DNA from: Flavobacteriales bacterium
GTDB taxonomy: Bacteria > Bacteroidota > Bacteroidia > Palsa-965
Length of the DNA stretch: 64,000 bases
Assembly: GCA_040377305.1 (NCBI GenBank)
Contig: JBEIPA010000014.1
Location: 32,001 to 96,000 of the forward strand
Direction of reading: 5' to 3'
This document shows positions 53,364-64,000 of this stretch, piece after piece. Each line of letters begins with the position of its first letter. Within the stretch, counting starts at the first letter, position 1. A program made the translations under genes and the position numbers. The notes under the pieces were generated by a model. That model did no database searches. It saw nothing but the letters and a program-made list of their open reading frames with translations, and was not told the DNA's origin.

Positions 53364-53882
53364 CTATTCAAGTTTCTCGATGCGCGCTACTTTGAAAATA
53401 TAAAGCATGCGGTCATCCCACACTTTTCCGGTTACACGCACCTTATCACCATGAACGATTTCGTTCCCACTATTGTCGTAAATCAATAGATCCTTGTCTT
53501 CGTAATCTTCCGGAATGGGTGCCATGGTGTTTTCGCAATCGCCTTCCCAAATCATCATGGTTACGTAGTCTCCTTCCATTGTTGAATCCTGTTTAAGATT
53601 CACGAGATACGTTCCGCTGTTCAGGTAAGTCATATTAGGCATTTCCGCATAACCTTCGAAGGTTACAAGTTCTTCCTTCGCAGGATAATTTGCGGCCGTA
53701 TCCCATTCGAGTGGCGTGCCGTGTGCAACCTTTGCAGGGCCTCCAGGACAAACTTCTTCTTCAGGCGTCTTGTGTACAGCAGGTTTGTCGTTGCAGTTTG
53801 CCCAGATTAAACCCGTTGTAATTCCACCAACAACGATCAATGCCATGATAAATCGGACGATAGCTTGTGCTTTGCTTTCCAT
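53364..53882 (-). CDS. membrane-anchored hypothetical protein (OB-fold-like C-terminus)
   Basis: N-terminal TM helix and GDKVRVTGKV motif. Confidence 0.65.
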   Translation of the reverse strand: MESKAQAIVRFIMALIVVGGITTGLIWANCNDKPAVHKTPEEEVCPGGPAKVAHGTPLEWDTAANYPAKEELVTFEGYAEMPNMTYLNSGTYLVNLKQDSTMEGDYVTMMIWEGDCENTMAPIPEDYEDKDLLIYDNSGNEIVHGDKVRVTGKVWDDRMLYIFKVARIEKLE

Positions 53883-53903
53883 ATTCCAGATATTTAGTTT
53901 GTT

Positions 53904-54419
53904 CTACTGTTCAGTACCATGAAGCCAGAATCGCGATACTGGTTTACTGCCGCGTTCATCTATATTTTTGTCTATCTCTTCGTCAAAGAAATAATAAATT
54001 CTGTTTCCGGGAAGCGAAAAACTTTGGCAGGACCATGCTTGAATTGGAATTACTTCACTGCTTCCGCTATTCCCACTTAGTGTGTAAATGATTTCCTCCA
54101 GCAAAAGCGTGTTGAATGAATTATTGATAATCATCACCGAATCGGAATCATAGGTTTTTGTTATCTCGTTTCCATCGGCGAGCATATAACTGAAAGTTCC
54201 GAAAGCGCGGTAAGTAGAAACTTCATTCTCTGCGTCAACAATATACAGTCGCCCGACTCCGAACATCAGTCCCGCAAACAATACACCTGCAAGAAATAGT
54301 CCGACCACAAAACCCTGGCGGCTTTTCATTTTTGTCCGGATGAACCACGAAACACCCCAGAAAATTGCGATGGTAAAAAGTGAGACGAGAATAGTGTAAA
54401 TGATATTGTTGATCAGCAT
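53904..54419 (-). CDS. hypothetical membrane protein
   Basis: Two TM helices; ATG at 54419 lies downstream of the rtcB terminator. Confidence 0.6.
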   Translation of the reverse strand: MLINNIIYTILVSLFTIAIFWGVSWFIRTKMKSRQGFVVGLFLAGVLFAGLMFGVGRLYIVDAENEVSTYRAFGTFSYMLADGNEITKTYDSDSVMIINNSFNTLLLEEIIYTLSGNSGSSEVIPIQAWSCQSFSLPGNRIYYFFDEEIDKNIDERGSKPVSRFWLHGTEQ

Positions 54420-54433
54420 GCAGGCAAAAGGTA

Positions 54434-54476
54434 TAAAAAAAGGTCCAGACAACACCAGGTCATCCGGACTCTTTTC
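54434..54476 (-). terminator. intrinsic terminator ending the rtcB operon
   Basis: Minus strand GTCCGGATGAC...GTTGTCTGGAC followed by CTTTTTTT, just after the rtcB stop. Confidence 0.7.
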
Positions 54477-54481
54477 ATTCT

Positions 54482-55885
54482 TTACCCATCCATTCGCACG
54501 ATACGCGGACTGAACTTTCCTACGATGTCGACTAAATCAACTTGCGCCTCCATCACCTGAAAAATGTCTTTGTACGCATGTGGCGATTCATCCAGACCAC
54601 CACCGATTAACGTCACGTTATTTTCTTTCAGCACAGATTTCATCTCTGCATTCGTTACGTTTTTCATTGCTGCTGTACGCGACATTTTACGTCCCGCTCC
54701 ATGAGAAGCAGAGTTGATGGAAATGCTCGCACCTTTTCCGCGTACAATGAATCCCGGTGCAGTCATCGATCCCGGAATAATTCCGAGAACGCCTTTGCCG
54801 GCAGGTGTTGCACCTTTACGATGCACGATTACATCTTTGCCGTTGAATTTTTCTTTCCATGCAAAGTTGTGGTGGTTTTCTACCATCGCGATGGGTTCAA
54901 CACCAAGCGCAGCTGCAATCTTCTCGTGAATTTTGTGATGACACGCCGAAGCATAATCACCAGCGAGATTCATTGCAAGCCAATACTCTTGTCCTTCCTG
55001 AGTTGAAAGATCAAGCCACGCAAGATGTTTTGCTTCCTGCGGCAAACGACATTTCTCCATTGCCACTTTCGTGTAATGGTTCGCAATCGTTGCGCCAAGT
55101 CCGCGCGAACCGGAATGCGACAACAACGCGAGGTATCGACCTAATGGAAGATTGAACTCGTTGTTCTCATCGCTGATATCAACAACTCCGAATTCCACAA
55201 AGTGATTTCCCGAACCGGATGTTCCCATTTGCTTCACTGCTTTCAGCTGCAGACCTTTCAGCAATGGAATTTCATCGAACAACTTTCGGTCAGTCACTTC
55301 AAACTCTTTGTTCTCCTTGAACTCTTGTCCTGAACCAAAGAGTGTATTATCCGTAAGCACTTTGTAAAGTCCGCGCGAGTCGGTGTCGATGATCTCGTGC
55401 GGAGTCGGAAAAATACTCAGGCACATTCGGCAACCGATGTCGACGCCAACTCCATAAGGAATAATTGCGTTTTCCGTAGCGAGTACACCACCGATCGGCA
55501 ATCCATAACCCTGATGCGCATCCGGCATCAAAGCACCGGCAACTGCAACCGGCAAACGAATTGCCACATCCATTTGTTTACGCGCACCATCTTCGATCTG
55601 ATCTCCACCGTAAATTGCGTAAGATCCTTGTTCGATGCGCAATGCAATTTCGGGACCTTCCGCTTCTTTCGGCTTTTCCGTCAACGCATCCGCAATCGCA
55701 GCGAGGTTCGTGTCGTCGAGATAATCCGCAGGTGCAGCAAGAATATTTTTCAGCATCTCCATCACATCTTCACGTGATGATTTGCGGTAATACTTTTCAA
55801 TGATGTTGAGGGCAATTCCCACAACGCGTCCTTGTTTGTATCCAAGTTCGCGAAGGTGATCTCCGGTGATGTTTAATTTGTTCAT
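54482..55885 (-). CDS. rtcB: RNA 2',3'-cyclic phosphate/5'-OH ligase RtcB with N-terminal extension
   Basis: MPDAHQGYGLPIGGV, GVDIGC, GNHFVE, HSGSRG, HHN, HRKGATPA, PGSM, SHGAGR and DESPHAYK motifs. Confidence 0.96.
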   Translation of the reverse strand: MNKLNITGDHLRELGYKQGRVVGIALNIIEKYYRKSSREDVMEMLKNILAAPADYLDDTNLAAIADALTEKPKEAEGPEIALRIEQGSYAIYGGDQIEDGARKQMDVAIRLPVAVAGALMPDAHQGYGLPIGGVLATENAIIPYGVGVDIGCRMCLSIFPTPHEIIDTDSRGLYKVLTDNTLFGSGQEFKENKEFEVTDRKLFDEIPLLKGLQLKAVKQMGTSGSGNHFVEFGVVDISDENNEFNLPLGRYLALLSHSGSRGLGATIANHYTKVAMEKCRLPQEAKHLAWLDLSTQEGQEYWLAMNLAGDYASACHHKIHEKIAAALGVEPIAMVENHHNFAWKEKFNGKDVIVHRKGATPAGKGVLGIIPGSMTAPGFIVRGKGASISINSASHGAGRKMSRTAAMKNVTNAEMKSVLKENNVTLIGGGLDESPHAYKDIFQVMEAQVDLVDIVGKFSPRIVRMDG

Positions 55886-56514
55886 TTTACTAATTGTATT
55901 TCTTGTGTAACATAAATTCGAGGTTGTTCAACTTTATTTGTTGACTCGAATTTCATAGCGATGATTTCTTCGCAAGCGCGAGTAATGTGCACAACCATTT
56001 CATCGACATTAATATTTAATATCCCGTCTGCACGAAGAATTGTACCTCCACCTTGCGCATGTGAAAACCTGAGTTTGCCCTTTGGGGCAAAACAGTGAAC
56101 TAAGCCGCATCGCATTTCATCATATAGATCAAATGTTCCATTGGATTCTGCTTTTAAATACGCTCGATAATCCTTAAGAGATGCGAGATTCCGAATGGAG
56201 CGCTCAAAGTCCTCACGAACAGTGCCCGATTTATCCCAAACTGTTGGGGAATTTTCATTTATACACTTTCCGAAGAATTCAATTGCCGAACTCATGCAAA
56301 TTGCCCCGAGCCATGGCGATACTTTAACCACAGCTTGCATTTCGTCAATAAGTACAGTCCGCATAAATTGCTTAGTTGGAATGGGCATCTGCACAACAAA
56401 ATGTGATTTATCATCAGTAAAGCCAAAGACAACATTTTTCATTTGTTCATCCGTGAAAAGGTGCTTTCGTTGAAACTCTTGAAGGATCGATTGAACTGAT
56501 ATTTCTTTCATCAT
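55882..56514 (-). CDS. putative HEPN-domain protein
   Basis: SSAIEFFG helix followed by MRCGLVH (Rx4H); ATGA overlap with rtcB. Confidence 0.6.
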   Translation of the reverse strand: MMKEISVQSILQEFQRKHLFTDEQMKNVVFGFTDDKSHFVVQMPIPTKQFMRTVLIDEMQAVVKVSPWLGAICMSSAIEFFGKCINENSPTVWDKSGTVREDFERSIRNLASLKDYRAYLKAESNGTFDLYDEMRCGLVHCFAPKGKLRFSHAQGGGTILRADGILNINVDEMVVHITRACEEIIAMKFESTNKVEQPRIYVTQEIQLVK

Positions 56515-56552
56515 GATTATTCTATACTAATCAATTTACAAAATTTGTTTTG

Positions 56553-56623
56553 ACGACCGACAGGGATTCGAACCCCGATCCTCAGATTCGTATTCTGAGA
56601 TTCTTCCGTTGAACTATCGATCG
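56553..56623 (-). tRNA. tRNA-Arg(ACG), no encoded CCA
   Basis: CGATCGA/TCGGTCG acceptor, TCAGA-ATACGAA-TCTGA anticodon arm, GGTTCGAATCC T arm. Confidence 0.85.
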
Positions 56624-56630
56624 AAATACA

Positions 56631-56653
56631 GTGTCGGGATACGATCCCGACAC
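56631..56653. repeat. small palindrome GTGTCGGGAT-ACG-ATCCCGACAC (related copies near 58529-58553 and 58651-58671)
   Basis: 10-bp perfect stem; the motif recurs within this locus. Confidence 0.65.
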
Positions 56654-56656
56654 CTC

Positions 56657-56788
56657 ACAGGCAAAAAGCGAAAAGAGACTGTTTGCATTGCTCTACCACT
56701 GAGCTACACACAACTTTCGCTATGTGGCCGGATTCGAACCGGCGTCCCATGGATTGGAAGTCGAAGTAACTCTTTTCTACGGCACTGT
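56657..56788 (-). ncRNA. Y RNA of YrlA type (Y1): Ro-binding-like stem plus circularly permuted tRNA domain
   Basis: Order is T arm (GCCGGTTCGAATCCGGC), GAAA-capped acceptor stem (CACATAGC GAAA GTTGTGTG), D arm (TAGCTCAGTGGTAGAGC), enclosed by a terminal stem; lies near the TROVE gene. Confidence 0.88.
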
Positions 56789-56794
56789 TCATTG

Positions 56795-56868
56795 GGTGTT
56801 AGATCGGTTTCGATCCGATTACCTCTTGCTTCACAAGCAAGCGCTCTCCCGAGTGAGCTACAAACACC
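56795..56868 (-). tRNA. tRNA-His(GTG) with G-1:C73 and atypical T loop (ATCGAAA)
   Basis: CTTGC-TTGTGAA-GCAAG anticodon arm; 8-position acceptor with one mismatch. Confidence 0.8.
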
Positions 56869-56873
56869 GTGTT

Positions 56874-56957
56874 CAGTAGGCAGTTTGGCAGTAGTGCAGT
56901 TGGCAGTCAAAATATAATTCTCTGACTGCCTACTGCCCAACTGCTTACTGCCTACTG
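56874..56957. repeat. REP-like imperfect palindrome of GGCAGT units (second copy at 58336-58421)
   Basis: cagtaggcag...gactgcctactg arms; near-identical architecture in both copies. Confidence 0.75.
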
Positions 56958-56963
56958 TTCTTG

Positions 56964-57037
56964 TACTCTGTGTGGGATTCGAACCCACGTGATCTGGTCG
57001 AAAACCAGATATACTAGACCAACTATATGAACAGAGC
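56964..57037 (-). tRNA. tRNA-Glu(TTC), no CCA
   Basis: GCTCTGT/ACAGAGT acceptor, TCTGG-TTTTCGA-CCAGA anticodon arm, GTGGGTTCGAATCCCAC T arm. Confidence 0.85.
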
Positions 57038-57039
57038 CT

Positions 57040-57117
57040 GATTGATTTGCGGATGACGCGCCGGGTTCTCTCCTTTGGAGAGTTAGAGAGGCGCGGCGCG
57101 TAATCCGCAAATCAATC
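57040..57117. repeat. long spacer hairpin between tRNAs
   Basis: gattgatttgcggat.acgcgccg / cggcgcgt.atccgcaaatcaatc. Confidence 0.75.
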
Positions 57118-57122
57118 TTCAG

Positions 57123-57196
57123 TCGCGACAGCAGGATTCGAACCTACATCTTCTCCAGTCCAAGTGGAGAGGCTTAGCCAATTAGCCGACCTCGCG
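57123..57196 (-). tRNA. tRNA-Pro(TGG), no CCA
   Basis: CTCCA-CTTGGAC-TGGAG anticodon arm, GTAGGTTCGAATCCTGC T arm, C1:G72 and A73. Confidence 0.82.
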
Positions 57197-57285
57197 ATGT
57201 TGATTAGCTGATTTTTAATTTCTGATTTCTGATGCTGAAAGGTGTTACCCCAAGAGCTAATCAAAAATCAGCTAATCCTATTTAT

Positions 57286-57390
57286 TGTGAGGAAAAAATC
57301 ACAGAAAAGACGAAAGCGCCATCTTTCGATGTCAGGATTCGAACCTGTTTCTTCCTGCCACGAAGTATCTCTTCTGTTACGTCACTCACA
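57286..57390 (-). ncRNA. Y-like RNA Y2: shared scaffold plus T arm and GAAA mini-hairpin
   Basis: TGTGAG-TGACGTA-ACAGAAGAG-ATACTTCG...CAGGTTCGAATCCTG...CTTTTCTGT-GATTTTTTC-CTCACA. Confidence 0.78.
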
Positions 57391-57418
57391 AACTCAAAGA
57401 ACAAATTCAATTTCAAAA

Positions 57419-57513
57419 TAAGCGGGCAAAAGTCAATCAGAGTCTGCCGGGATTTGAACCCGCGTCTTTCGACTTTCTACCAAAGAAGTATCTCTGATTT
57501 ACGGCACCGTTTA
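57419..57513 (-). ncRNA. Y-like RNA Y3: shared scaffold plus D-loop-like TGGTAGA, GAAA hairpin and T arm
   Basis: TAAACGG-TGCCGTA-AATCAGAG-ATACTTC...CGGGTTCAAATCCCG...CTCTGATT-GACTTTTGC-CCGCTTA. Confidence 0.78.
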
Positions 57514-57523
57514 CTTTTAACTA

Positions 57524-58051
57524 TTATCTCGTCGGGATCTTCAATCCCATTTTCTTCATCGCAAGCAATGCTTCTGCATTTCCGATTGCGTCGTTGACCG
57601 GGTTGTGATCATGACGCGTTTTGCGAAACAATCGCTTCCACTCGCTGTTCAGTCCTCCATCCATTTTCATTCCACAATACAGATCACCGATTCGTCTGCC
57701 TGAAAATCCAAACGGATTTTTTCCCAGGTAGAAATGGAAGTAATAATTAATCCACTGCCAATCGAACGCGAGGTTATCGCTGATGAATATTGCTTTGCCG
57801 TCGGATGTTGCGTTCAACCATTCGGAGAAACGTTTCATCACTTCGGCGGGCTCCTCGAACGACTCGTGTTGCCCGCGTGTGAAACCACTTACTGCAAGTG
57901 CATCCGGAATCCATTCTTTGGAAATTGGTTGCGTCTTTCCGTAGAATGTTTTCGCGAGTGTGGGTTCTATCACCACTGCACCGAAGCAAACCATCGAATA
58001 TTTATTTGGGATGGGCCCATCGGCCTCTACATCCACTACTATGTAACTCAT
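57524..58051 (-). CDS. DEDDh 3'-5' exoribonuclease (Rv2179c/RNase AS-like)
   Basis: VDVEADGP, SDNLAFD and HNPVNDA motifs; likely start MSYIVVD. Confidence 0.85.
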   Translation of the reverse strand: MSYIVVDVEADGPIPNKYSMVCFGAVVIEPTLAKTFYGKTQPISKEWIPDALAVSGFTRGQHESFEEPAEVMKRFSEWLNATSDGKAIFISDNLAFDWQWINYYFHFYLGKNPFGFSGRRIGDLYCGMKMDGGLNSEWKRLFRKTRHDHNPVNDAIGNAEALLAMKKMGLKIPTR

Positions 58052-58083
58052 TTTGTTTTTGTTTTTAATCAATTTAATAATTT

Positions 58084-58156
58084 AAGCTGGCAACAAACTC
58101 GCAGAGGTTTTGGTCTAATTAACAGTTAGAAGTAACTCTGCAATACGGCACAGCTT
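58084..58156 (-). ncRNA. Y-like RNA Y4: minimal scaffold with only a short hairpin insert
   Basis: AAGCTG-TGCCGTA-TTGCAGAG-TTACTTC...CTCTGCGA-GTTTGTTGC-CAGCTT. Confidence 0.75.
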
Positions 58157-58214
58157 GCCGATGTGCCGATTTCCAATATGCCAATATGCCGATTGGAAAT
58201 ACCTCAATAAAATT

Positions 58215-58332
58215 CGGAAGCAAAAAACGATTCGGGTGGGGCGTCGCAATGAGGATTTGCACCTCTTCCTGGTTTTTACATCAGGACCCTTGCCCCCTGT
58301 CGAGCGAAGTATCCCGGCTCTACGGCATTCCG
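58215..58332 (-). ncRNA. Y-like RNA Y5: scaffold plus D-armless tRNA-like insert
   Basis: CGGAA-TGCCGTA-GAGCCGGG-ATACTTCG...TCCTGA/CCAGGA hairpin, GAGG-TGCAAAT-CCTC T arm...CCCGAATC-GTTTTTTGC-TTCCG. Confidence 0.75.
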
Positions 58333-58335
58333 TTT

Positions 58336-58421
58336 CAGTAGGCCGTTTGGCAGGCGTTCAGTAGGCAGTCAAAATTTATTCCTAATGACTGCCGACTGCA
58401 CTACCGCACTACTGCCTACTG
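58336..58421. repeat. REP-like GGCAGT palindrome, second copy
   Basis: Similar to 56874-56957. Confidence 0.72.
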
Positions 58422-58426
58422 ATTAA

Positions 58427-58646
58427 ACAACGGTAACTGGCAACAAGTCTGCTTTCTGCTTTCACAGAATACGGCCGTCCTATTTCTGTATTGCTACAGA
58501 CAGTTGACTGGTAATCATCATCCGCATGGTGTCAGGATCTGAAATCCTGATACTGCGCACTCAGATTAACGTTCGCGAACCACAGTTACCCGTGCATCAC
58601 TACCTTAGGACCGTTATCGAAGTATGACCCGTTTACGACACGTTGT
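58427..58646 (-). ncRNA. Y-like RNA Y6: scaffold plus about 170-nt insert containing 23S rRNA H69/H70-like sequence
   Basis: ACAACG-TGTCGTA-AACGGGTC-ATACTTCG-ATAACGGTCCTAAGGTAG...CGGCCGTA...GACTTGTT-GCCAGTTAC-CGTTGT. Confidence 0.75.
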
Positions 58647-58686
58647 GTGATGTCAGGATCCTATCCTGACAGTGCACATAATTTTT

Positions 58687-58696
58687 TCAAAGAACG
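58687..58696 (-). promoter_or_regulatory. boxA-like antitermination motif (CGTTCTTTGA); second copy at 57394-57403
   Basis: GTTCTTTGA occurs ahead of or inside the ncRNA blocks that follow TROVE and the exonuclease. Confidence 0.5.
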
Positions 58697-58766
58697 TTTG
58701 TACTAACCAAGCCGTCGGGCGACCTCTCCTTCAGTGCAATTTCCGAAGGAGAGGCGTAGCCGTAAA

Positions 58767-60281
58767 CTACAACTCGAGTTGTTTTATCATCGCGATTGCA
58801 TCTGTACCGTTTTCTGCAGCATACAATACGTCGAACACTTTATCTGACCAGCCCGCGATGAGTGTTACATCGTCGCGCTGCACACTGATTGGTGTGTTAC
58901 CGTAACCTGCGAGGTCGAACAAGTACAGTTTCGCCATTGGCGCAATCTGTTTGTATTCTTTCCACGCCGTCTGCAACGAATCACCGTCAGCTTTGGTATT
59001 CCACATCTGGCAGTCAGTGAACATCATCACTTTGTCCATCACAACATTGCGCTGAACAAGATCTTTGATCACCAGGTAACCATTTGTGGCGTAACCAACT
59101 TCACCTTCCCGCTTGTAGTACTCATCAACATTCGCAAGTACTCCACGGTTAGGCATGTTGATTACCTTCCAGCGATCTCCGAACATTCCGGAAACCACTC
59201 GTTCACACTTGCTCTGCATCAGCATACCCAGTACCAGACCGATATCGAACAAATACACTTTGCTCTTCGCCGAGATTGGTTTCTGCATTGAACCCGAAAC
59301 GTCACACGCAATCAACACACGTGTTTTGTAATCGAATCCGCTGATGTTTTTCGCTGAAGCTACAATTGCATCTTCCAGCGCGTTAAGTATCATCGACACG
59401 TAATCAGCTTTCAGCACTTTCACTTCACGGTATGCAGACAGGAAACGGAATGGCAACTGCTTCGATTTCGCAACCTGGTTTGCATCAGAAAGCGTATCAC
59501 ACACTTTTTTGATTGCATCCCATGATACACCCGCTTCAATCATGTTACGGATGTTACGCAACATCGCCATGTATCCCAGCTTACCGCTGAAGATCAGTTC
59601 TTCCCATTTCGCACGAACCGCAAGCTCTTTTGCTTTTGCATCAGCGAATTTTTGCTGACCCAAAGCAGAAAGTTCAGTTTCCCAGGTATAAGCAACAGAC
59701 AGCTCTTTCGCAGCGATCTTGTTGAAGACTGCTTGCTGTTCATCACTTTTCGCTTTCGGGTGAACAAGGAACAATGCATCACGCAACGTTACTGCCGCTT
59801 CACGGTTGTATTTCGAGAACTGGTATTCATCAAAACGATTGAACGCCTTTGCGAGTCCTTTCTGTACCTGTTTCGAAAGCTTGTTCAGTTTCTTAGTTCC
59901 CGAACGGTTGTTCGCCAGTTGGTAGTAAGCCAGAAGCTCAGTGATCTCATCAGCACGCTGAACGACACCGTTCACCGCTTTGGATACAACTATATTTCCG
60001 GAGTTACGTTTTGCAAGTTCGACTGCAAGCACCTGTGGAATAGAACGCATGTACATTTTGTTACGTGCATACACCGCAAGCTTCGCCACGAATTCAGCAT
60101 CTGTCTTCTCCATGAGATCCACGATACGTTGAAGACGCTCGTTTCCTTTCTCATAGAACGAATCGCTCAGTCCTGCGGTTACTACCGCTGAATACAGTTC
60201 GAGCTCAGGAGTCATTGCGAATGCTTTTGCGCCTTCGTAATTAGTGACTGCTGTTTTACGTTTGAAGATGTTGAATTTCAT
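58767..60281 (-). CDS. rsr: TROVE domain protein (Ro60/Rsr orthologue) with vWA domain
   Basis: NYEGAKAF, YARNKMYMRS, TWE, GYMAMLRNIRN, QLPFRFLSAY, MIDAS DVSGSM and AGWSD motifs. Confidence 0.93.
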   Translation of the reverse strand: MKFNIFKRKTAVTNYEGAKAFAMTPELELYSAVVTAGLSDSFYEKGNERLQRIVDLMEKTDAEFVAKLAVYARNKMYMRSIPQVLAVELAKRNSGNIVVSKAVNGVVQRADEITELLAYYQLANNRSGTKKLNKLSKQVQKGLAKAFNRFDEYQFSKYNREAAVTLRDALFLVHPKAKSDEQQAVFNKIAAKELSVAYTWETELSALGQQKFADAKAKELAVRAKWEELIFSGKLGYMAMLRNIRNMIEAGVSWDAIKKVCDTLSDANQVAKSKQLPFRFLSAYREVKVLKADYVSMILNALEDAIVASAKNISGFDYKTRVLIACDVSGSMQKPISAKSKVYLFDIGLVLGMLMQSKCERVVSGMFGDRWKVINMPNRGVLANVDEYYKREGEVGYATNGYLVIKDLVQRNVVMDKVMMFTDCQMWNTKADGDSLQTAWKEYKQIAPMAKLYLFDLAGYGNTPISVQRDDVTLIAGWSDKVFDVLYAAENGTDAIAMIKQLEL

Positions 60282-60327
60282 GACTGTTTGTTTTAATTGT
60301 TATTGACGCTGCAAATGTTTTACTCAT

Positions 60328-60348
60328 CTACGCAATGGTCTTGCGCAG
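60328..60348. promoter_or_regulatory. palindromic operator CTACGCAA-N5-TTGCGCAG upstream of the TROVE gene
   Basis: Matches 61490-61510; lies 8 nt from a -7-like box AACATTTG (60312-60319, minus). Confidence 0.72.
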
Positions 60349-60434
60349 TTCGATTTATTTTAACTTTTTGTTTTAATCGCCTGATTTTCAGTTGGCATTA
60401 ATTCGTTTTTTCAATCGCAACATTTATTGCGGCG

Positions 60435-60507
60435 TTGGAAAGGAAGGGCTCGAACCTTCGACCTTGTGCGTATAAGGCACGTGCTCTTACCACTGAGCTA
60501 CTCTCCA
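60435..60507 (-). tRNA. tRNA-Ile(TAT), rare anticodon, no CCA
   Basis: TGGAGAG/CTTTCCA acceptor, GTGC-CTTATAC-GCAC anticodon arm, GAAGGTTCGAGCCCTTC T arm. Confidence 0.85.
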
Positions 60508-60514
60508 AGTCTTG

Positions 60515-60586
60515 CGGCGCGGATTGGACTTGAACCAATATAATCTCCCTTAACAGGGGAGAGCTCTACCATTGAGCTACCAGGCC
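60515..60586 (-). tRNA. tRNA-Asn(GTT), no CCA
   Basis: CTCCC-CTGTTAA-GGGAG anticodon arm, ATTGGTTCAAGTCCAAT T arm, G73. Confidence 0.85.
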
Positions 60587-60591
60587 ATTTG

Positions 60592-60664
60592 CGGTAACGA
60601 TGGGATTCGAACCCACAACTTTCCGATAGACAATCGGACGCTCTAGCCGTTGAACTACGCTACC
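60592..60664 (-). tRNA. tRNA-Asp(GTC), no CCA
   Basis: GGTAGCG/CGTTACC acceptor, TCCGA-TTGTCTA-TCGGA anticodon arm, G73. Confidence 0.87.
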
Positions 60665-60669
60665 ATTTG

Positions 60670-60742
60670 TGGACAAGGAAGGAATTGAACCTTCATCTTC
60701 TGATCTTCAGTCAGCCGCATTCACCGCGTTTGCTACCTGTCC
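60670..60742 (-). tRNA. tRNA-Phe(GAA), no CCA
   Basis: GGACAGG/CTTGTCC acceptor, CTGA-CTGAAGA-TCAG anticodon arm, GAAGGTTCAATTCCTTC T arm. Confidence 0.8.
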
Positions 60743-60748
60743 GTTTTG

Positions 60749-60822
60749 TTGACCCACCAGGGCTCGAACCTGGAACCCCCACTTTAAAAGAGCGGTGCAT
60801 CTAACCATTGAGCTATGGATCA
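60749..60822 (-). tRNA. tRNA-Lys(TTT), no CCA
   Basis: TGATCCA/TGGGTCA acceptor, CCGCT-CTTTTAA-AGTGG anticodon arm, CCAGGTTCGAGCCCTGG T arm. Confidence 0.86.
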
Positions 60823-60834
60823 ATATTTCTTCGC

Positions 60835-60891
60835 TTGTCCTCCTTCGGCAAAGCCTGTGCTGAGCGAAGTCGAAGTGCTCAGTCTGACAAG
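60835..60891. repeat. Bacteroidota REP-like element (CTGAGCGAAGTCGAAG); complementary half CTTCGACTACGCTCAG near 60981-61010
   Basis: The two halves are complementary and bracket tRNA-Gln. Confidence 0.55.
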
Positions 60892-60894
60892 TCG

Positions 60895-60965
60895 TTGTCG
60901 GAAATGGATTTGAACCACTATAGCCAGATTCAAACTCTGGTGTCCTACCATTAGACGATCCGACA
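60895..60965 (-). tRNA. tRNA-Gln(TTG), no CCA
   Basis: TGTCGGA/TCCGACA acceptor (U1:A72), CCAGA-GTTTGAA-TCTGG anticodon arm. Confidence 0.86.
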
Positions 60966-61011
60966 TTCAGTGTGTTTTCTTGTCATTCTTCGACTACGCT
61001 CAGTATGACAA

Positions 61012-61043
61012 TAAAAAAACCCGGTCGTGTGCGGACCGGGTCT
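61012..61043 (-). terminator. attenuator terminator 2
   Basis: AGACCCGGTC-CGCACAC-GACCGGG-TTTTTTT; the 5' arm can alternatively pair with GTGGACCG (61081-61088). Confidence 0.8.
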
Positions 61044-61064
61044 AACAAATCAGTTCAACTGATT

Positions 61065-61154
61065 TCAGTTATGACAACATCGGTCCACGAATTTTCCTTT
61101 CTGAAAATCTCGTTCGCTAAAATTGGGCAAGGCTATATAACTATGTTTCTTCAT
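61065..61154 (-). CDS. putative leader peptide 2 MKKHSYIALPNFSERDFQKGKFVDRCCHN
   Basis: 29-codon uORF containing the antiterminator and ending about 20 nt before terminator 2. Confidence 0.7.
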   Translation of the reverse strand: MKKHSYIALPNFSERDFQKGKFVDRCCHN

Positions 61155-61254
61155 GGTGTTTCTTTCTCTTCAACTTTTTTATTGTCAGGCCGAGTAGTCA
61201 TTGCAGTCTGCGGAGCAACTTGTGCTTGAAGATCGACGTACCGAGGTCGGGCAA

Positions 61255-61284
61255 TAAAAAAGCCCCGAATCTCTCCGGGGCTTT
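61255..61284 (-). terminator. attenuator terminator 1
   Basis: AAAGCCCCGGA-GAGA-TTCGGGGC-TTTTTT; the 5' arm can alternatively pair with CGGGGT (61312-61317). Confidence 0.8.
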
Positions 61285-61307
61285 ACTTCAGTTATATCCT
61301 AAAGCAA

Positions 61308-61385
61308 TTACACCCCGTGCAACAGACGATCTCCTTCGAGATTTATCTGTTTGCGTGTTTGCGGATATGTAAAATGCTTTTTCAT
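61308..61385 (-). CDS. putative leader peptide 1 MKKHFTYPQTRKQINLEGDRLLHGV
   Basis: 25-codon uORF with an A-rich upstream region; its last codons form the antiterminator. Confidence 0.7.
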   Translation of the reverse strand: MKKHFTYPQTRKQINLEGDRLLHGV

Positions 61386-61404
61386 TTTTCTTCTTATTCT
61401 GCGA

Positions 61405-61412
61405 CAAATATA
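61405..61412 (-). promoter_or_regulatory. Bacteroidota housekeeping-sigma -7 box TATATTTG for the leader/tRNA transcript
   Basis: Perfect TAnnTTTG about 20 nt upstream of the leader 1 ATG. Confidence 0.65.
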
Positions 61413-61489
61413 TTGTAAAGAAATAATGCGATCCAAATTATTCTGCAATTATTTTTCATGATTTGCAGTATTTACTTCACTTTGTCCAA

Positions 61490-61510
61490 CTGCGCAAATA
61501 CATTGCGCAG
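61490..61510. promoter_or_regulatory. palindromic operator CTGCGCAA-N5-TTGCGCAG upstream of the WYL gene
   Basis: Perfect 8-bp arms; lies 7 nt from a -7-like TATCTTAG (61518-61525). Confidence 0.72.
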
Positions 61511-61545
61511 ATAATTCTATCTTAGATGAGCCAATCACGCACATC

Positions 61546-62574
61546 ATGCCGATAAACAAACTCGCACTCATCCGCTACAAGACAATTGATAACTGTCTGC
61601 AGAACCGTTTCCGCAAATGGACACTTGACGATCTAGTGGATGCATGCTCGCGTACACTGGAAGAGTTCGAAGGAATTACACAAGGAGTAAGCAAGCGTAC
61701 TGTTCAGCTCGATATTCAGACGATGCGCAGTGAAAAGCTAGGATACAATGCTCCTATTGTGGTCAGCGACAAGAAGTATTATTCGTACGAAGACAAGAAT
61801 TACAGCATCACGAATATTCCGTTGACGAGTCAGGATTTAGGAACGCTCACGGAAGTTGTAGATATTCTACGCCAGTTTAAAGGGTTCGGTTACTTCGAAG
61901 AGCTCAGCACAATGGTGAACAAGCTCGAGGACAAAGTGCAGTCTCAGAAGAACAAAGGTCGCTCGTATATACACTTTGAGAAAAATGATTTGCTAAAAGG
62001 TCTCGAGTACATCGAATCATTGCACAAGGCGATCATTCGTCAGAAAACGATTGACGTATTATATCAGTCGTTCAAAGCACGTGAAGCGACAAGCATCATT
62101 TTTCATCCTTATCTGCTCAAGGAATACCGCAACCGCTGGTTTGTGATCGGCTCAACGCAAAAGAAAACAATTCTTACTCTGGCACTGGATAGAATTTTTT
62201 CTGTGAAAGAAGTCGGTGGAGAGAAATACATCAAGAATACCTTCTTTGATGTTGACTCGTACTTTGATGATACGATTGGCGTTACGAAGAATCTCGGGAT
62301 TCGACCACAATTGGTCGTGATGAAAATTGATCGTACGAATGCGCCATACGTAATCACAAAACCGATTCACCACACGCAGAAGATTCTGAAGACAGAACCC
62401 GACGGAATGATTTTCAGTATTAACGTGACGTGGAATTTTGAGTTGGAAAGAGAAATCCTTGGGTTTGGTGAACAGATAAAGGTGTTATCGCCAAAGAGAT
62501 TGCAGAATAAGATTAGCTGGAGGGTGAAGAGGATGGTGGAGAGGTATGAGGAACTTCAACCAAATGAACGATGA
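61546..62574 (+). CDS. HTH-WYL-WCX transcriptional regulator
   Basis: SKRTVQLDIQ HTH, HPYLLKEYRNRWFV...LALDRI WYL core, ILGFGEQIKVLSP C-terminus. Confidence 0.93.
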   Translation: MPINKLALIRYKTIDNCLQNRFRKWTLDDLVDACSRTLEEFEGITQGVSKRTVQLDIQTMRSEKLGYNAPIVVSDKKYYSYEDKNYSITNIPLTSQDLGTLTEVVDILRQFKGFGYFEELSTMVNKLEDKVQSQKNKGRSYIHFEKNDLLKGLEYIESLHKAIIRQKTIDVLYQSFKAREATSIIFHPYLLKEYRNRWFVIGSTQKKTILTLALDRIFSVKEVGGEKYIKNTFFDVDSYFDDTIGVTKNLGIRPQLVVMKIDRTNAPYVITKPIHHTQKILKTEPDGMIFSINVTWNFELEREILGFGEQIKVLSPKRLQNKISWRVKRMVERYEELQPNER

Positions 62575-63659
62575 GCGGCAAAGTAAATTCATTTCACGAA
62601 GCAGTTCGAACGAGACCTGGCATGTATATTGGCAGATTGGGTCCCGCTGGTTTCGGTTATCTTGTCAGCGAACTGATTAGAGATTTTGCTGCTGACCTGC
62701 AAGCAAAAGAAGCGCATGTGAGGATCGACATAAAAGGGAAGGTCACAATTAAATTTCCCGAAATAAATTGCACTCAGGCTGACCTTTATACTTTAATAAA
62801 AAATGGTCGGATGAGTCGCAGTTCTTCATTTTGGAGGACATCACTTGCCATTATCCCGCCGTTATCAAAAGCGACCACGCTCAAAATCGGAAGCACTAAG
62901 TATACTGTCAGCCGCAACGCTAAACTTAATCCTCACTTCGAGTCCGATACCGCTAAAGCTATTTCACGATTTGAAATAACCTTTCAACCGGATGCAGGTA
63001 TTCTCAAAGCCAAAGCGCCTGAAATACTTACTTTATGTGCTCGCTTGCATGAGCTCACGGTGGTTTGTCCCGGATTAAAAATCACTTACCGTGATGACAA
63101 TACAAAACCATTTACGCAAATGGTCTGGCATACTCCTGAAGGAATACGCACACTATTGGCGCCGGCACGAAATATGTTTTATGAAAAGAAATTAGAAGGA
63201 GGTTTTTCCTTTAACGAAAAAGGACTACGCGGTGAGGTGTACTGGTTATGTGCAAACGGGGGATGTGATCCTATCTATTCATTTGCTAACGGTGAACGTA
63301 CTGTGAAAGGCGGATCGCATGTGAAAGGATGCGTACAAGGTATACTGGACGCGTTGAAGGATTTAGTCAAAGGAAATGGCGAGAAATATGACTTCAGTGT
63401 GTCTCGTGCAATCCGACATCAATGTCTCGTAGTTTCCGTTTGGGGAAACGGCCTAAGCTATGCGGGCAGTACAAAAGAATGTCTGGAACATAAACCTACA
63501 AACCAAATTCTCCGCAAACTTGTTGGTGCGCACATGGAGCAGCTGTGTGCGTCGAATCCAAAGGATGCTATACAACTTACGTATCGGTTGCAGAAATGGA
63601 ATCTTGCGGAGATGTATCCTGAATTGTATTCCGGAAAATCAAGGAAAAAGAAGAAGTAA
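62571..63659 (+). CDS. degenerate GyrB/ParE N-terminal-like protein (GHKL-like plus transducer, no TOPRIM)
   Basis: AVRTRPGMYIG, ITFQPD, RLHEL...PGLKI, SFANG..T..GGSH..G and YAGSTKE motifs; lacks DNGRG and GLHGVG. Confidence 0.78.
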   Translation: MSGKVNSFHEAVRTRPGMYIGRLGPAGFGYLVSELIRDFAADLQAKEAHVRIDIKGKVTIKFPEINCTQADLYTLIKNGRMSRSSSFWRTSLAIIPPLSKATTLKIGSTKYTVSRNAKLNPHFESDTAKAISRFEITFQPDAGILKAKAPEILTLCARLHELTVVCPGLKITYRDDNTKPFTQMVWHTPEGIRTLLAPARNMFYEKKLEGGFSFNEKGLRGEVYWLCANGGCDPIYSFANGERTVKGGSHVKGCVQGILDALKDLVKGNGEKYDFSVSRAIRHQCLVVSVWGNGLSYAGSTKECLEHKPTNQILRKLVGAHMEQLCASNPKDAIQLTYRLQKWNLAEMYPELYSGKSRKKKK

Positions 63660-63660
63660 G

Positions 63661-64000
63661 ATGAAAATCATAGCCATTTCAGATACACACGGTCAGCATG
63701 GGAAGGTTGTGCTACCGGAAGGTGATGCGATTATTCACGCTGGTGATGTTTCCGTACGTGGAACTGAATCGCAGATCGTCGATTTCATCAACTGGTTTTC
63801 GGGACTGAACTATCGGTACAAGATTTTCATTGCGGGCAATCATGACTTCTTCTTCGAAAGAGAGTCACAGGAGAAAATCAAATCTCTGATTCCCGAGAAC
63901 GTTATATACCTGAACGATTCCGGTATTGAACTAGAAGGAATCAAAATCTGGGGCTCGCCGATTCAACCCTGGTTTCAGGACTGGGCGTTTAATCGGCAGA
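63661..64000 (+). CDS. calcineurin-like metallophosphoesterase (partial, runs off the window)
   Basis: Manual translation MKIIAISDTHGQH...IHAGDVS...IAGNHD...IWGSP; absent from the ORF track. Confidence 0.88.
   Translation, partial: MKIIAISDTHGQHGKVVLPEGDAIIHAGDVSVRGTESQIVDFINWFSGLNYRYKIFIAGNHDFFFERESQEKIKSLIPENVIYLNDSGIELEGIKIWGSPIQPWFQDWAFNRQ

Follow-up and report, generated by a model that had tools for sequence, protein, structure and literature searches.

How might a bacterium hold a set of spare tRNA genes, Y-like RNAs and RNA-repair enzymes in reserve, and what would release them? The question is raised by a chromosomal island of a Flavobacteriales bacterium (GenBank assembly GCA_040377305.1, contig JBEIPA010000014.1), part of which falls within the 64,000-nucleotide (nt) stretch that we analysed (contig positions 32,001–96,000, C7:32001-96000; hereafter the window). 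The sequencing runs listed as containing the stretch are all of the DNA type, one of them being its probable source. The genome measures 5.18 Mb in 60 contigs and is 99.99% complete. The main operon lies on the minus strand and runs from position 61412 of the window down to 54443. In order of transcription, it comprises a candidate −7 promoter box, two leader open reading frames (ORFs) that are each followed by a terminator, six tRNA genes, the gene for the TROVE protein Rsr (a Ro60 homologue), three Y-like RNAs, a DEDDh exonuclease gene, two further Y-like RNAs, tRNA genes for Pro, Glu and His, a YrlA-like RNA, a tRNA-Arg gene, the gene for a 210-residue protein, the gene for the RNA ligase RtcB and a final terminator. 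Divergent genes on the plus strand encode a WYL-WCX protein, a stand-alone GyrB-like protein and a metallophosphoesterase. Every element listed in a preliminary description of the same DNA is there, in the order and on the strand that it gives. That description took the locus to end at the window edge; the island runs on beyond it, and a third attenuator with a Leu/Tyr/Ser tRNA array and genes for an RNA ligase (Rnl), an HD-kinase protein, PrfH and a second RtcB (RtcB2), all just past the edge, were missing from its list. We propose that this is an RNA-rescue island placed behind leader ORFs that act as ribosome-mediated attenuators and are opened by a shortage of the tRNAs that read them, and we give this mechanism as a whole a probability of roughly 0.6 on the sequence features described below.

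Leader ORFs and alternative hairpins ahead of the tRNA genes

Classical attenuators, such as those of trp, his, leu, thr and pheST, combine a leader ORF that carries regulatory codons with 1:2, 2:3 and 3:4 hairpins, and stalling of the ribosome on the leader leads to read-through. Two units of comparable layout stand in series before the first tRNA gene of the main operon. Leader ORF 1 (61308–61385, minus strand; ATG-started, 25 codons plus stop) precedes a terminator-like hairpin at 61259–61284, and leader ORF 2 (61065–61154, minus strand; ATG-started, 29 codons plus stop) precedes another at 61017–61043, both hairpins being on the minus strand; the two leaders stop 29 and 27 nt, respectively, before their terminators. 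The third unit lies in the outer part of the island (locus L002, C7:95000-112000), where leader ORF 3 (L002:2261-2181, minus strand, 26 codons) and its terminator are followed by Leu(TAG), Tyr, Leu(TAA), Ser(GCT), a sixteenth tRNA-like gene (anticodon TGA) and Tyr. The final codons of each of the three leaders can pair with the 5′ arm of its terminator, and RNAfold predicts the terminator for each full sequence and a hairpin between the ORF end and the 5′ arm for the sequence before the 3′ arm exists. For leader 1, RNAfold gives 1:2, 2:3 and 3:4 pairings; codons 5–9 can also pair with the antiterminator strand, and the antiterminator duplex has an energy of −12.5 kcal/mol (z = −2.2 against shuffles).

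This pairing recurs well beyond the island. We compared 25 leader/terminator units from 16 loci, representing three unrelated leader sequence types, with dinucleotide shuffles. The energy of pairing between the ORF end and the 5′ arm had a mean z of −2.33 and was negative in 23 of the 25 units (z < −1.64 in 17), and the gap from stop codon to stem measured 24–36 nt in every one of them. At one locus (L061), where a base of the 5′ arm differs, the antiterminator strand has the matching base, and pairing of the differing base with the 3′ arm is possible only as a G–U wobble. Leader 1 has 25 codons wherever it occurs in the genus (five of five loci). The dual attenuator of the preliminary description stands, with an antiterminator that overlaps the ORF end in both leaders and pairs that are kept in relatives. 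A broader survey points the same way. TROVE relatives number 556 in GTDB representative genomes, and we mapped the best 80 of these loci plus five (85 in all; counts over them are lower bounds, because many loci are cut by contig ends). A crude detector of a short ORF plus terminator fired in 20 of the 29 loci with at least three same-strand tRNAs, as against 11 of the 56 others. The island thus has a short ORF with a close terminator, a maskable alternative antiterminator and regulatory codons, the last being clear for leader 3 and moderate for leaders 1 and 2, and we consider it likely that attenuation as such takes place here.

The codon content of the leaders suggests what they may sense. 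Leader 3 contains an uninterrupted run of 11 Leu (five), Ser (four) and Tyr (two) codons, ahead of an array that holds only Leu, Tyr and Ser tRNA genes. By composition, such a run has P ≤ 2e-7 in a 25-codon ORF; the six-frame translation of the genome contains six, and leader 3 is the only small ORF to have one among the ORFs of 10–40 codons that were scanned. Between this genome and another of the same genus (G015), the run has acquired three synonymous and no non-synonymous changes, as compared with one synonymous and eight non-synonymous changes in the 15 codons outside it (ATG and stop excluded), and the antiterminator bases are kept despite a one-base shift against the reading frame. Judged by this pattern and by the constant length of leader 1, translation of the leaders seems to matter. 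Leaders 1 and 2 sample the island more widely: all 13 amino acids of the island tRNAs are present in leader 2 (simulated P = 0.007) and 12 of the 13 in leader 1 (simulated P = 0.022), and island tRNAs read 18 of 24 codons in leader 1 and 22 of 28 in leader 2, against a coding background of 0.55. Over the 25 leaders, tRNAs of the same locus read 317 of 806 codons; the corresponding numbers are 218 and 249 in the two off-frames and 267.9 (s.d. 12.4) in the prediction from the coding background.

In the mechanism that we propose, a ribosome translating smoothly would reach the leader stop codon and cover the antiterminator strand, so that the terminator would form and the island would stay off. 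Were the tRNAs that read the leader cleaved, depleted or uncharged, an early stall would let the antiterminator form and RNA polymerase would read through. Read-through would produce replacement tRNAs, RtcB would re-ligate broken RNA, and damaged RNA would be trimmed or cleared by ribonucleoproteins (RNPs) of Rsr and Y RNAs, possibly aided by the adjacent exonuclease. The serial arrangement of two attenuators would keep the main operon tight, and the divergent WYL protein would likely add control at the level of the promoter. Within this scheme, sensing that is specific for tRNAs is an even call.

Several observations weigh against the scheme. In leader 3 itself, the array reads 12 of 25 codons; under strict wobble it leaves three Leu codons (of five) and a single Ser codon unread. 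Locus specificity is weak (p = 0.026 by permutation of tRNA sets over 16 related, non-independent loci), and permuted tRNA sets still give a codon excess. Enrichment is slight in leaders of the Chitinophagales type (14 of 28 codons in one example, against a background of 0.59), and several other loci show weak or no enrichment for cognate codons. Part of the leader conservation lies in the nucleotides: a motif shared between families falls in different reading frames, which can be traced to the pairing of codons 5–9 with the antiterminator strand. Attenuators are also not obligatory, because 9 of the 29 tRNA-bearing loci have no detected leader and the locus L027 has its tRNAs behind Rsr without a leader. 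Finally, to our knowledge, coupling of transcription and translation that is tight enough for attenuation has not been established in Bacteroidota.

In an alternative reading, the leaders would be sensors of translation stress in general (any slowing of ribosomes by antibiotics, damaged rRNA or starvation), with codons that are unmatched to the downstream tRNAs. The attenuator design would be identical in that case, a cognate-codon enrichment that is modest overall and nil in several loci, with weak locus specificity, would be expected, and the tRNA array of Anabaena responds to ribosome-targeting antibiotics generally (PMC8421152). A general sensor would, however, hardly explain why an 11-codon Leu/Ser/Tyr run with purely synonymous divergence stands before a Leu/Tyr/Ser-only array, or why leaders 1 and 2 sample the amino acids of the island almost completely, and we regard it as unlikely, although it survives better than the other alternatives. 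We consider it improbable that the ORFs and hairpins are non-regulatory, that is, small genes or transcription insulators where the WYL promoter region ends, with tRNAs and Rsr transcribed from promoters of their own and linkage that reflects co-transfer of RNA-related genes. The genome-wide hairpin repeats found among the tRNAs, the free shuffling of modules between loci and the 9 leaderless loci among the 29 would suit such a reading, whereas the fixed 24–36-nt spacing and antiterminator complementarity across 25 units of three sequence types, the conserved ORF length and the placement of the leaders, which always point into the operon between the candidate promoter and the first tRNA, argue against it.

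Transcription of the main operon may start from a candidate Bacteroidetes-type −7 box (61405–61412, minus strand), read directly from the sequence 19 nt before the ATG of leader 1, the consensus of such boxes being TAnnTTTG; a like box precedes leader 1 in two related genomes (G024 and G008). A 19-nt palindrome at 61491–61509, about 40 nt before the WYL start codon, is a candidate WYL operator and the single perfect copy in the genome. Of 51 WYL-bearing loci, 6 have the strict palindrome between the WYL gene and the operon, and the two closest relatives have variants of it; given these 6 matches and the one perfect genomic copy, no WYL regulon can be defined. From the divergent position of the gene and the one palindrome, we infer promoter control by the WYL protein.

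Leaders of another kind occur elsewhere. Seven loci from Epilithonimonas and Chryseobacterium (L079, L096, L071, L073, L078, L080 and L066) have a different, longer pair of leader ORFs, of 41–45 codons, ahead of tRNA arrays upstream of TROVE; these have their own conserved terminators, and the loci gave no WYL match to the query used here. A Thr/Ile-rich small ORF that was considered as a positive control for attenuation was discarded as an off-frame artefact inside a Gly/Tyr-rich gene.

Spare tRNAs and Y-like RNAs

ARAGORN finds 52 tRNAs in the genome, 15 of which belong to the island (window plus outer array). The window holds 10, as the preliminary description had counted, all on the minus strand and agreed on by ARAGORN and Rfam: the six-tRNA array, which reads Gln, Lys, Phe, Asp, Asn, Ile(TAT) in order of transcription (60434–60965), followed by Pro (57122–57196), Glu (56963–57037), His (56794–56867) and a supernumerary Arg(ACG) (56552–56623). 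Sequence identity to housekeeping isoacceptors is 62–76% for the six array tRNAs and 69% for tRNA-Arg(ACG). Over the whole island, 14 of the 15 tRNAs repeat the anticodon of a housekeeping gene elsewhere, yet are only 56–76% identical to that gene; the remaining one, tRNA-Ile(TAT), has no other copy in the genome. For 10 of 13 comparable anticodon types, the anticodon loop departs from its housekeeping counterpart, the changes being at positions 32, 37 or 38; the loops for Asn, Lys and Tyr are the same. Divergence of this kind resembles that of phage tRNAs that escape anticodon nucleases, and the spare tRNAs are likely to be poor substrates for an attacking nuclease. With 14 diverged duplicates among 15 genes, and TROVE loci in 9 of 26 genomes of the genus, the island tRNAs are supernumerary, foreign and patchy in the manner of L-arrays. 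They come in blocks of 6, 4 and 5–6 genes, broken up by protein and Y-RNA genes; relatives have 14–20 in a row.

Not all of the spare tRNAs look sound, which again speaks against the proposed supply of replacements. Both island Leu tRNAs (TAA and TAG; L002:1733-1806 and 1989-2061, window-equivalent about 64732–65060) measure only 74–75 nt and so are without the long variable arm typical of bacterial tRNA-Leu, whereas the Tyr and Ser genes next to them retain theirs. The Ser(GCT) gene went undetected by Rfam at E ≤ 0.01, and the sixteenth tRNA-like gene reached only 34.5 bits, with the Sec model. These atypical members of the array (Leu, Ser and the sixteenth) may be decoys or decaying genes. 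Extending this to all the extra tRNAs, as non-translational decoys for tRNA-targeting nucleases (like the tRNA-like Y RNAs) or as substrates or guides of Rsr, is the least probable of the alternatives: the Leu tRNAs without a variable arm, low-scoring Ser genes and altered anticodon loops, including an unusual position 37, would fit, as would the published ideas of array tRNAs as a sponge (PMC8421152) and of YrlA as an inhibitor (PMC7790460), but most of the 15 score as good tRNAs (49.6–67.2 bits in the window and 40.2–58.3 bits for four of the outer array), tRNA-His has retained the extra 5′ G and a C as discriminator base, and tRNA-Ile(TAT) adds decoding capacity that the genome otherwise lacks as a gene. 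For tRNA-His, the pair of features just named corresponds to the identity rule of an extra 5′ G opposite a C discriminator.

The island is likely to be a rescue kit against tRNA-cutting toxins. A more specific and more tentative version of this idea, to which we assign somewhat less than even odds, is a tRNA homeostat directed against anticodon nucleases. Its leaders would probe the tRNA pool, and the loss of just those tRNAs cut by toxins or defence nucleases would stall the ribosome and open the tandem attenuators, releasing nuclease-insensitive spares along with RtcB, Rsr–Y RNPs and the exonuclease; such a system would be widespread in Bacteroidota and shared with phage-like elements.

The Y-like RNAs share a common 5′ and 3′ module in a motif scan. 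Rfam shows only one YrlA-like match among them (RF02553, 56659–56776, 39.8 bits, E = 4.4e-6 over 10 kb, model positions 1–114), the other five being undetected by that model even at permissive thresholds, and a covariance model of our own was therefore needed. The sequences behind this model (R1), 60 in number, come from other genomes, with this genome and its two closest relatives left out. The RNAalifold consensus of the 60 sequences consists of an outer stem, an inner stem, a T-arm and an acceptor-like stem, and compensatory changes occur in 20 of the 25 predicted pairs (alignment A2). Searched against both strands of the 64 kb, R1 returned exactly six full-length matches, the number claimed previously, all on the minus strand between rtcB and TROVE and scoring 36.1–114.7 bits. 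Numbered from the rtcB side, Y-like RNA 1 (56655–56789; 114.7 bits, E = 1.5e-24) is of the YrlA type, with T-arm-like and D-arm-like parts; RNAs 2 (57286–57389; 54.2 bits, E = 1.5e-10) and 3 (57420–57511; 54.6 bits, E = 1.3e-10) follow; RNA 4 (58084–58155; 49.6 bits) is short, without a tRNA-like part; and RNA 5 (58214–58332; 36.7 bits, E = 1.7e-6) is followed by RNA 6 (58427–58645; 36.1 bits, E = 2.3e-6), which has a long insert. Eight weaker matches in the window at E ≤ 1 reach at most 27.5 bits and lie on tRNA genes or their flanks: six are partial, covering the T-arm/D-arm part on tRNA genes or the array flank, and two span the full model at 17–18 bits on tRNA plus spacer sequence (56898–57023 and 56493–56633).

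By the Rfam criterion the six RNAs are not members of YrlA, because the best of them scores 39.8 bits against a gathering score of 69; in predicted structure they share the YrlA architecture despite failing that threshold. Non-coding RNAs with paired 5′ and 3′ ends thus adjoin the Rsr gene, as in the class of Rsr–Y RNPs. In the 85 other TROVE loci, R1 gives 391 matches at E ≤ 1e-5, about 4.6 per locus on average, a multiplicity that far exceeds the cases studied so far, and the 300 matches listed from other loci are all on the TROVE strand and mostly just downstream of TROVE. An ungapped test for the 3′ partner of the Y stem had a poor control (274 of 334 real against 168 of 334 shuffled stems) and was set aside in favour of the covariance model. 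GCAGT-rich hairpins at 56872–56952, between the His and Glu tRNA genes, and at about 58340–58420 were examined as Y RNAs or processing sites and rejected as part of a genome-wide repeat, with 167 motif matches on 29 of the 60 contigs. The repeat forms long, imperfect hairpins and looks like an element of the repetitive extragenic palindrome (REP) or miniature inverted-repeat transposable element (MITE) type. Hairpins of the same kind lie in the outer locus at L002 about 1400–1460, 1650–1730 and 1910–1985, and a similar one is found 3′ of a Y-like RNA in G015.

Proteins of the island and their occurrence in relatives

The Rsr/Ro60 homologue (58767–60281, minus strand) has a TROVE domain (Pfam, E = 2.4e-30) followed by a weak vWA match (vWA_Ro60, 24.6 bits, just below the cut-off of 27.7), an order that places it in the Ro60 (Rsr) class with the vWA part sub-threshold. 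It represents a distant subfamily, because it scores only 29.5 bits on the NCBIfam Rsr model against a cut-off of 900. RtcB (54482–55885, minus strand; PF01139, E = 2.9e-81) is one of two copies, and a whole-genome search found no RtcB genes other than the two of the island. Directly after it, a terminator-like hairpin with an 11-pair stem and a T run (54443–54469, minus strand) ends the main operon. Two ORFs of 172 and 183 residues directly 3′ of this terminator (53364–54455) have no family match except a weak one to OB_RNB (E = 0.0011). The DEDDh-type 3′–5′ exonuclease (57524–58072, minus strand) matches the Pfam Rv2179c-like family with 28.4 bits (cut-off 27), and in PADLOC it matches ‘Effector exonuclease’ (E = 2.1e-38) and DEDDh (E = 3.1e-8).

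The 210-residue protein encoded between tRNA-Arg and rtcB (55882–56514, minus strand) carries an R-x4-H motif (R135-x4-H140). It has no match in Pfam, NCBIfam or PADLOC; a word-index search returned only the protein itself and a sequence-profile search of the PDB returned nothing. It has 179 distant relatives, and E79, G82, Y116, R135 and H140 are invariant in 47 that were aligned, none of which matches a Pfam HEPN family. Its AlphaFold model (pLDDT 92.3) has no Foldseek match at E ≤ 0.001; in VIA the four best chains are all HEPN proteins, with weak scores (AbiV, Z = 5.7; three Csm6 HEPN domains, Z = 4.2–5.0) that fall within the range which that tool calls common. HEPN RNases have an R-x4-6-H motif within an alpha-helical fold, and the protein is probably a HEPN-like RNase. 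The motif noted in the preliminary description is thus invariant in the family, and its assignment to a conserved system failed: tblastn found the protein in none of the 85 other loci, so that it is specific to this genome among the loci compared and is not a conserved part of the system.

On the plus strand, the WYL-WCX protein (61546–62574; Pfam WYL, E = 7.2e-12, and WCX, E = 4.4e-11; PADLOC WYL, E = 2.5e-25) is transcription-factor-like. Transcription factors of the PafBC, DriD and BrxR/CapW type have an N-terminal helix–turn–helix (HTH) domain followed by WYL and WCX; no Pfam HTH match was obtained in residues 1–150 of the island protein at E ≤ 0.01. The next gene (62571–63659) encodes a stand-alone GyrB-like protein of about 360 residues, corresponding to the ATPase/transducer part (Pfam DNA_gyraseB, E = 6e-11; NCBIfam gyrB, residues 134–335) with no Toprim match. 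Its nearest Atlas clusters are ‘DNA gyrase B domain’ proteins of 320–365 residues, mostly from Bacteroidota. The gene adjoins WYL here and stands directly upstream of TROVE in two Chryseobacterium loci (L073 and L086). The metallophosphoesterase ORF occupies 63460–64000 of the window and extends to window-equivalent position 64293 (Pfam Metallophos, E = 1.3e-11 for the full ORF); its start is probably near 63650, because the domain begins at residue 68. In PADLOC it matches the candidate phage-defence family PDC-S10 (E = 5.1e-94), and this match and that of the exonuclease link the island to the gene pools of defence islands.

In the outer part, genes for an ATP-dependent RNA ligase (PF09414), an HD-plus-kinase protein, a 183-residue ORF and a GH25 muramidase diverge from the leader 3 unit, and on the minus strand RtcB2 is followed directly by PrfH (TIGR03072, 252 bits, cut-off 166.65). 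With the PrfH-linked RtcB model, RtcB2 reaches 139 bits, short of the cut-off of 271.8. A 14-codon ORF on the minus strand (L002:8100-8170), between a promoter-like box and RtcB2, ends inside a short GC hairpin with no clear T run and may be a fourth small leader.

The island is chromosomal, with housekeeping genes such as that of pyruvate kinase close by and an even base composition throughout the window, and it is accessory, because TROVE is patchily distributed: of 26 genomes of the genus, 9 have it (including G012, which is unpublished), as does one of two from a sister genus and none of six from another. Five same-genus loci have enough contig for comparison (G007, G015, G024, G008 and G016). 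WYL is divergent from TROVE in all five, and RtcB lies downstream in four, the contig of G015 stopping before it. Both leader/terminator units are present in four; the fifth, G016, has neither leaders nor proper tRNAs. Neighbouring genes in relatives carry type IX secretion sorting domains, which, along with the named relatives, put the genome in Bacteroidota. Among the 85 mapped loci, WYL is divergent upstream in 48, and a same-strand RtcB follows downstream in 44; 38 loci have one or more tRNAs on the same strand and 29 have three or more, in blocks that may precede Rsr, separate it from RtcB or follow RtcB. In the vicinity, RlaP, Rnl with the HD-kinase protein, and RtcB2 with PrfH recur; the GyrB-like gene is found in two loci and the phosphoesterase in one. 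The core of WYL, Rsr, Y RNAs and RtcB with variable tRNA arrays therefore recurs in the genus (five of five loci with enough contig) and widely in Bacteroidota, and the lack of conservation in relatives that the preliminary description had named as refuting it is not seen. Because it is present in cultivable strains of Flavobacterium, Chryseobacterium and Epilithonimonas, among them Epilithonimonas caeni DSM 17710 (L079) and Chryseobacterium formosense DSM 17452 (L078), the system is directly testable.

TROVE homologues (31–57% identity) also occur beside 10–27 tRNAs on predicted viral contigs from IMG/VR (L105, L112, L119, L123 and L127; 27 tRNAs on L105), some with Y-like motifs and RlaP, so that Ro60 and tRNA arrays go together outside chromosomal islands as well. 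TROVE identity is 54–62% to the best viral contigs and at most about 35% to deposited phage genomes; given the latter value, no direct phage origin is shown.

Taken together, the anatomy, the conservation, the dual attenuator and the contrast with Salmonella set out in the preliminary description held, and the R-x4-H protein as a part of the system and the idea of one unified ‘complete architecture’ were overstated. The elements of that architecture are present, but they are largely a local mix of modules that recur separately; Rsr–Y–RtcB operons have been published, as have the links of tRNA arrays with rtcB and with translational stress.

Comparison with known systems

What appears to be new is the regulatory logic, that is, the leader attenuators, and the Bacteroidota architecture as a class. 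One close counterpart is the rsr-yrlBA-rtcBA RNA-repair operon of Salmonella, reportedly described by Chen et al. in 2013/2014. In Salmonella Typhimurium, this operon responds to tRNA damage (Hughes et al. 2020, PMC7790460), and Rsr–Y–RtcB operons that respond to damaged tRNA have been documented more than once (PMC7790460, PMC4201824). The operon and the island have in common Rsr/Ro60, tRNA-like Y RNAs, RtcB, a divergent regulator and a link to damaged tRNA. Whereas the Salmonella operon has RtcA, control by RtcR and sigma-54, and two Y RNAs, the island has a WYL protein in the divergent position, six Y-like RNAs, 10 tRNAs and an exonuclease inside the operon, and leader-peptide attenuators. 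Neither RtcR (PF06956) nor RtcA (PF01137) gave a match in the 99.99%-complete genome (an E. coli control was positive), and the island accordingly is not an RtcR-controlled rtcBA operon with divergent RtcR and RtcA, as had been stated before. If our mechanism is correct, leader attenuation would be a second route to the detection of tRNA damage, besides the sensing of tRNA fragments by RtcR, and would give bacterial Ro60 and Y RNAs a concrete physiological setting in the recovery from such damage.

A second counterpart is the tRNA array of Anabaena, which is co-induced with rtcB by translational stress (Santamaria-Gomez 2021, PMC8421152); L-arrays with up to 43 tRNA genes have been described (PMC8421152). 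Both loci have supernumerary, horizontally spread tRNAs in a neighbourhood rich in RNA-processing genes, including rtcB, and the Anabaena array is silent until translational stress, which may hold for the island as well. In Anabaena, control is by TrcR, a ribbon–helix–helix repressor that acts on direct repeats of the promoter (PMC10272220); the island instead has attenuators before short arrays (6, 4 and 5–6 tRNAs) that are interleaved with Rsr, Y RNAs and enzymes. The text of PMC8421152 contains none of the words ‘leader’, ‘terminator’, ‘TROVE’ and ‘Rsr’. In the literature searched, from which two key reviews fell outside coverage, no leader-peptide attenuator is described before tRNA arrays or Rsr/RtcB operons, nor is WYL described with Rsr/RtcB. 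Attenuation of this kind, if borne out, would explain why supernumerary tRNA arrays are silent until they are needed.

Jumbo phages carry sets of tRNAs with RtcB, Rnl1/2, polynucleotide kinase and ROT/TROVE proteins (Iyer et al. 2021, PMC7824862), and that work reads the combination of phage tRNAs with RNA ligase and TROVE genes as a counter to RNase effectors. Self-encoded tRNAs accompanied by RNA ligases, and sometimes by TROVE, are thus common to these phages and the island, which differs from them in its chromosomal location, housekeeping flanks, WYL regulator and attenuators. The outer part of the island recalls a further system. PrfH and RtcB are said to form a ribosome rescue and repair pair (Tian et al. 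2022), and PrfH lies directly downstream of RtcB2 here, outside the window, with an RtcB2 that scores below the cut-off of the PrfH-linked model.

Set against textbook attenuation, the island would represent a new class of target, in which tRNA supply and RNA repair take the place of amino-acid synthesis, and the molecules sensed and the genes regulated would be the same tRNA species. Classical attenuators regulate biosynthetic enzymes or synthetases, and their leaders are dedicated to one amino acid; the leaders of the island precede the tRNAs themselves together with RNA-repair genes, and leaders 1 and 2, two units in tandem, draw on about 13 amino acids.

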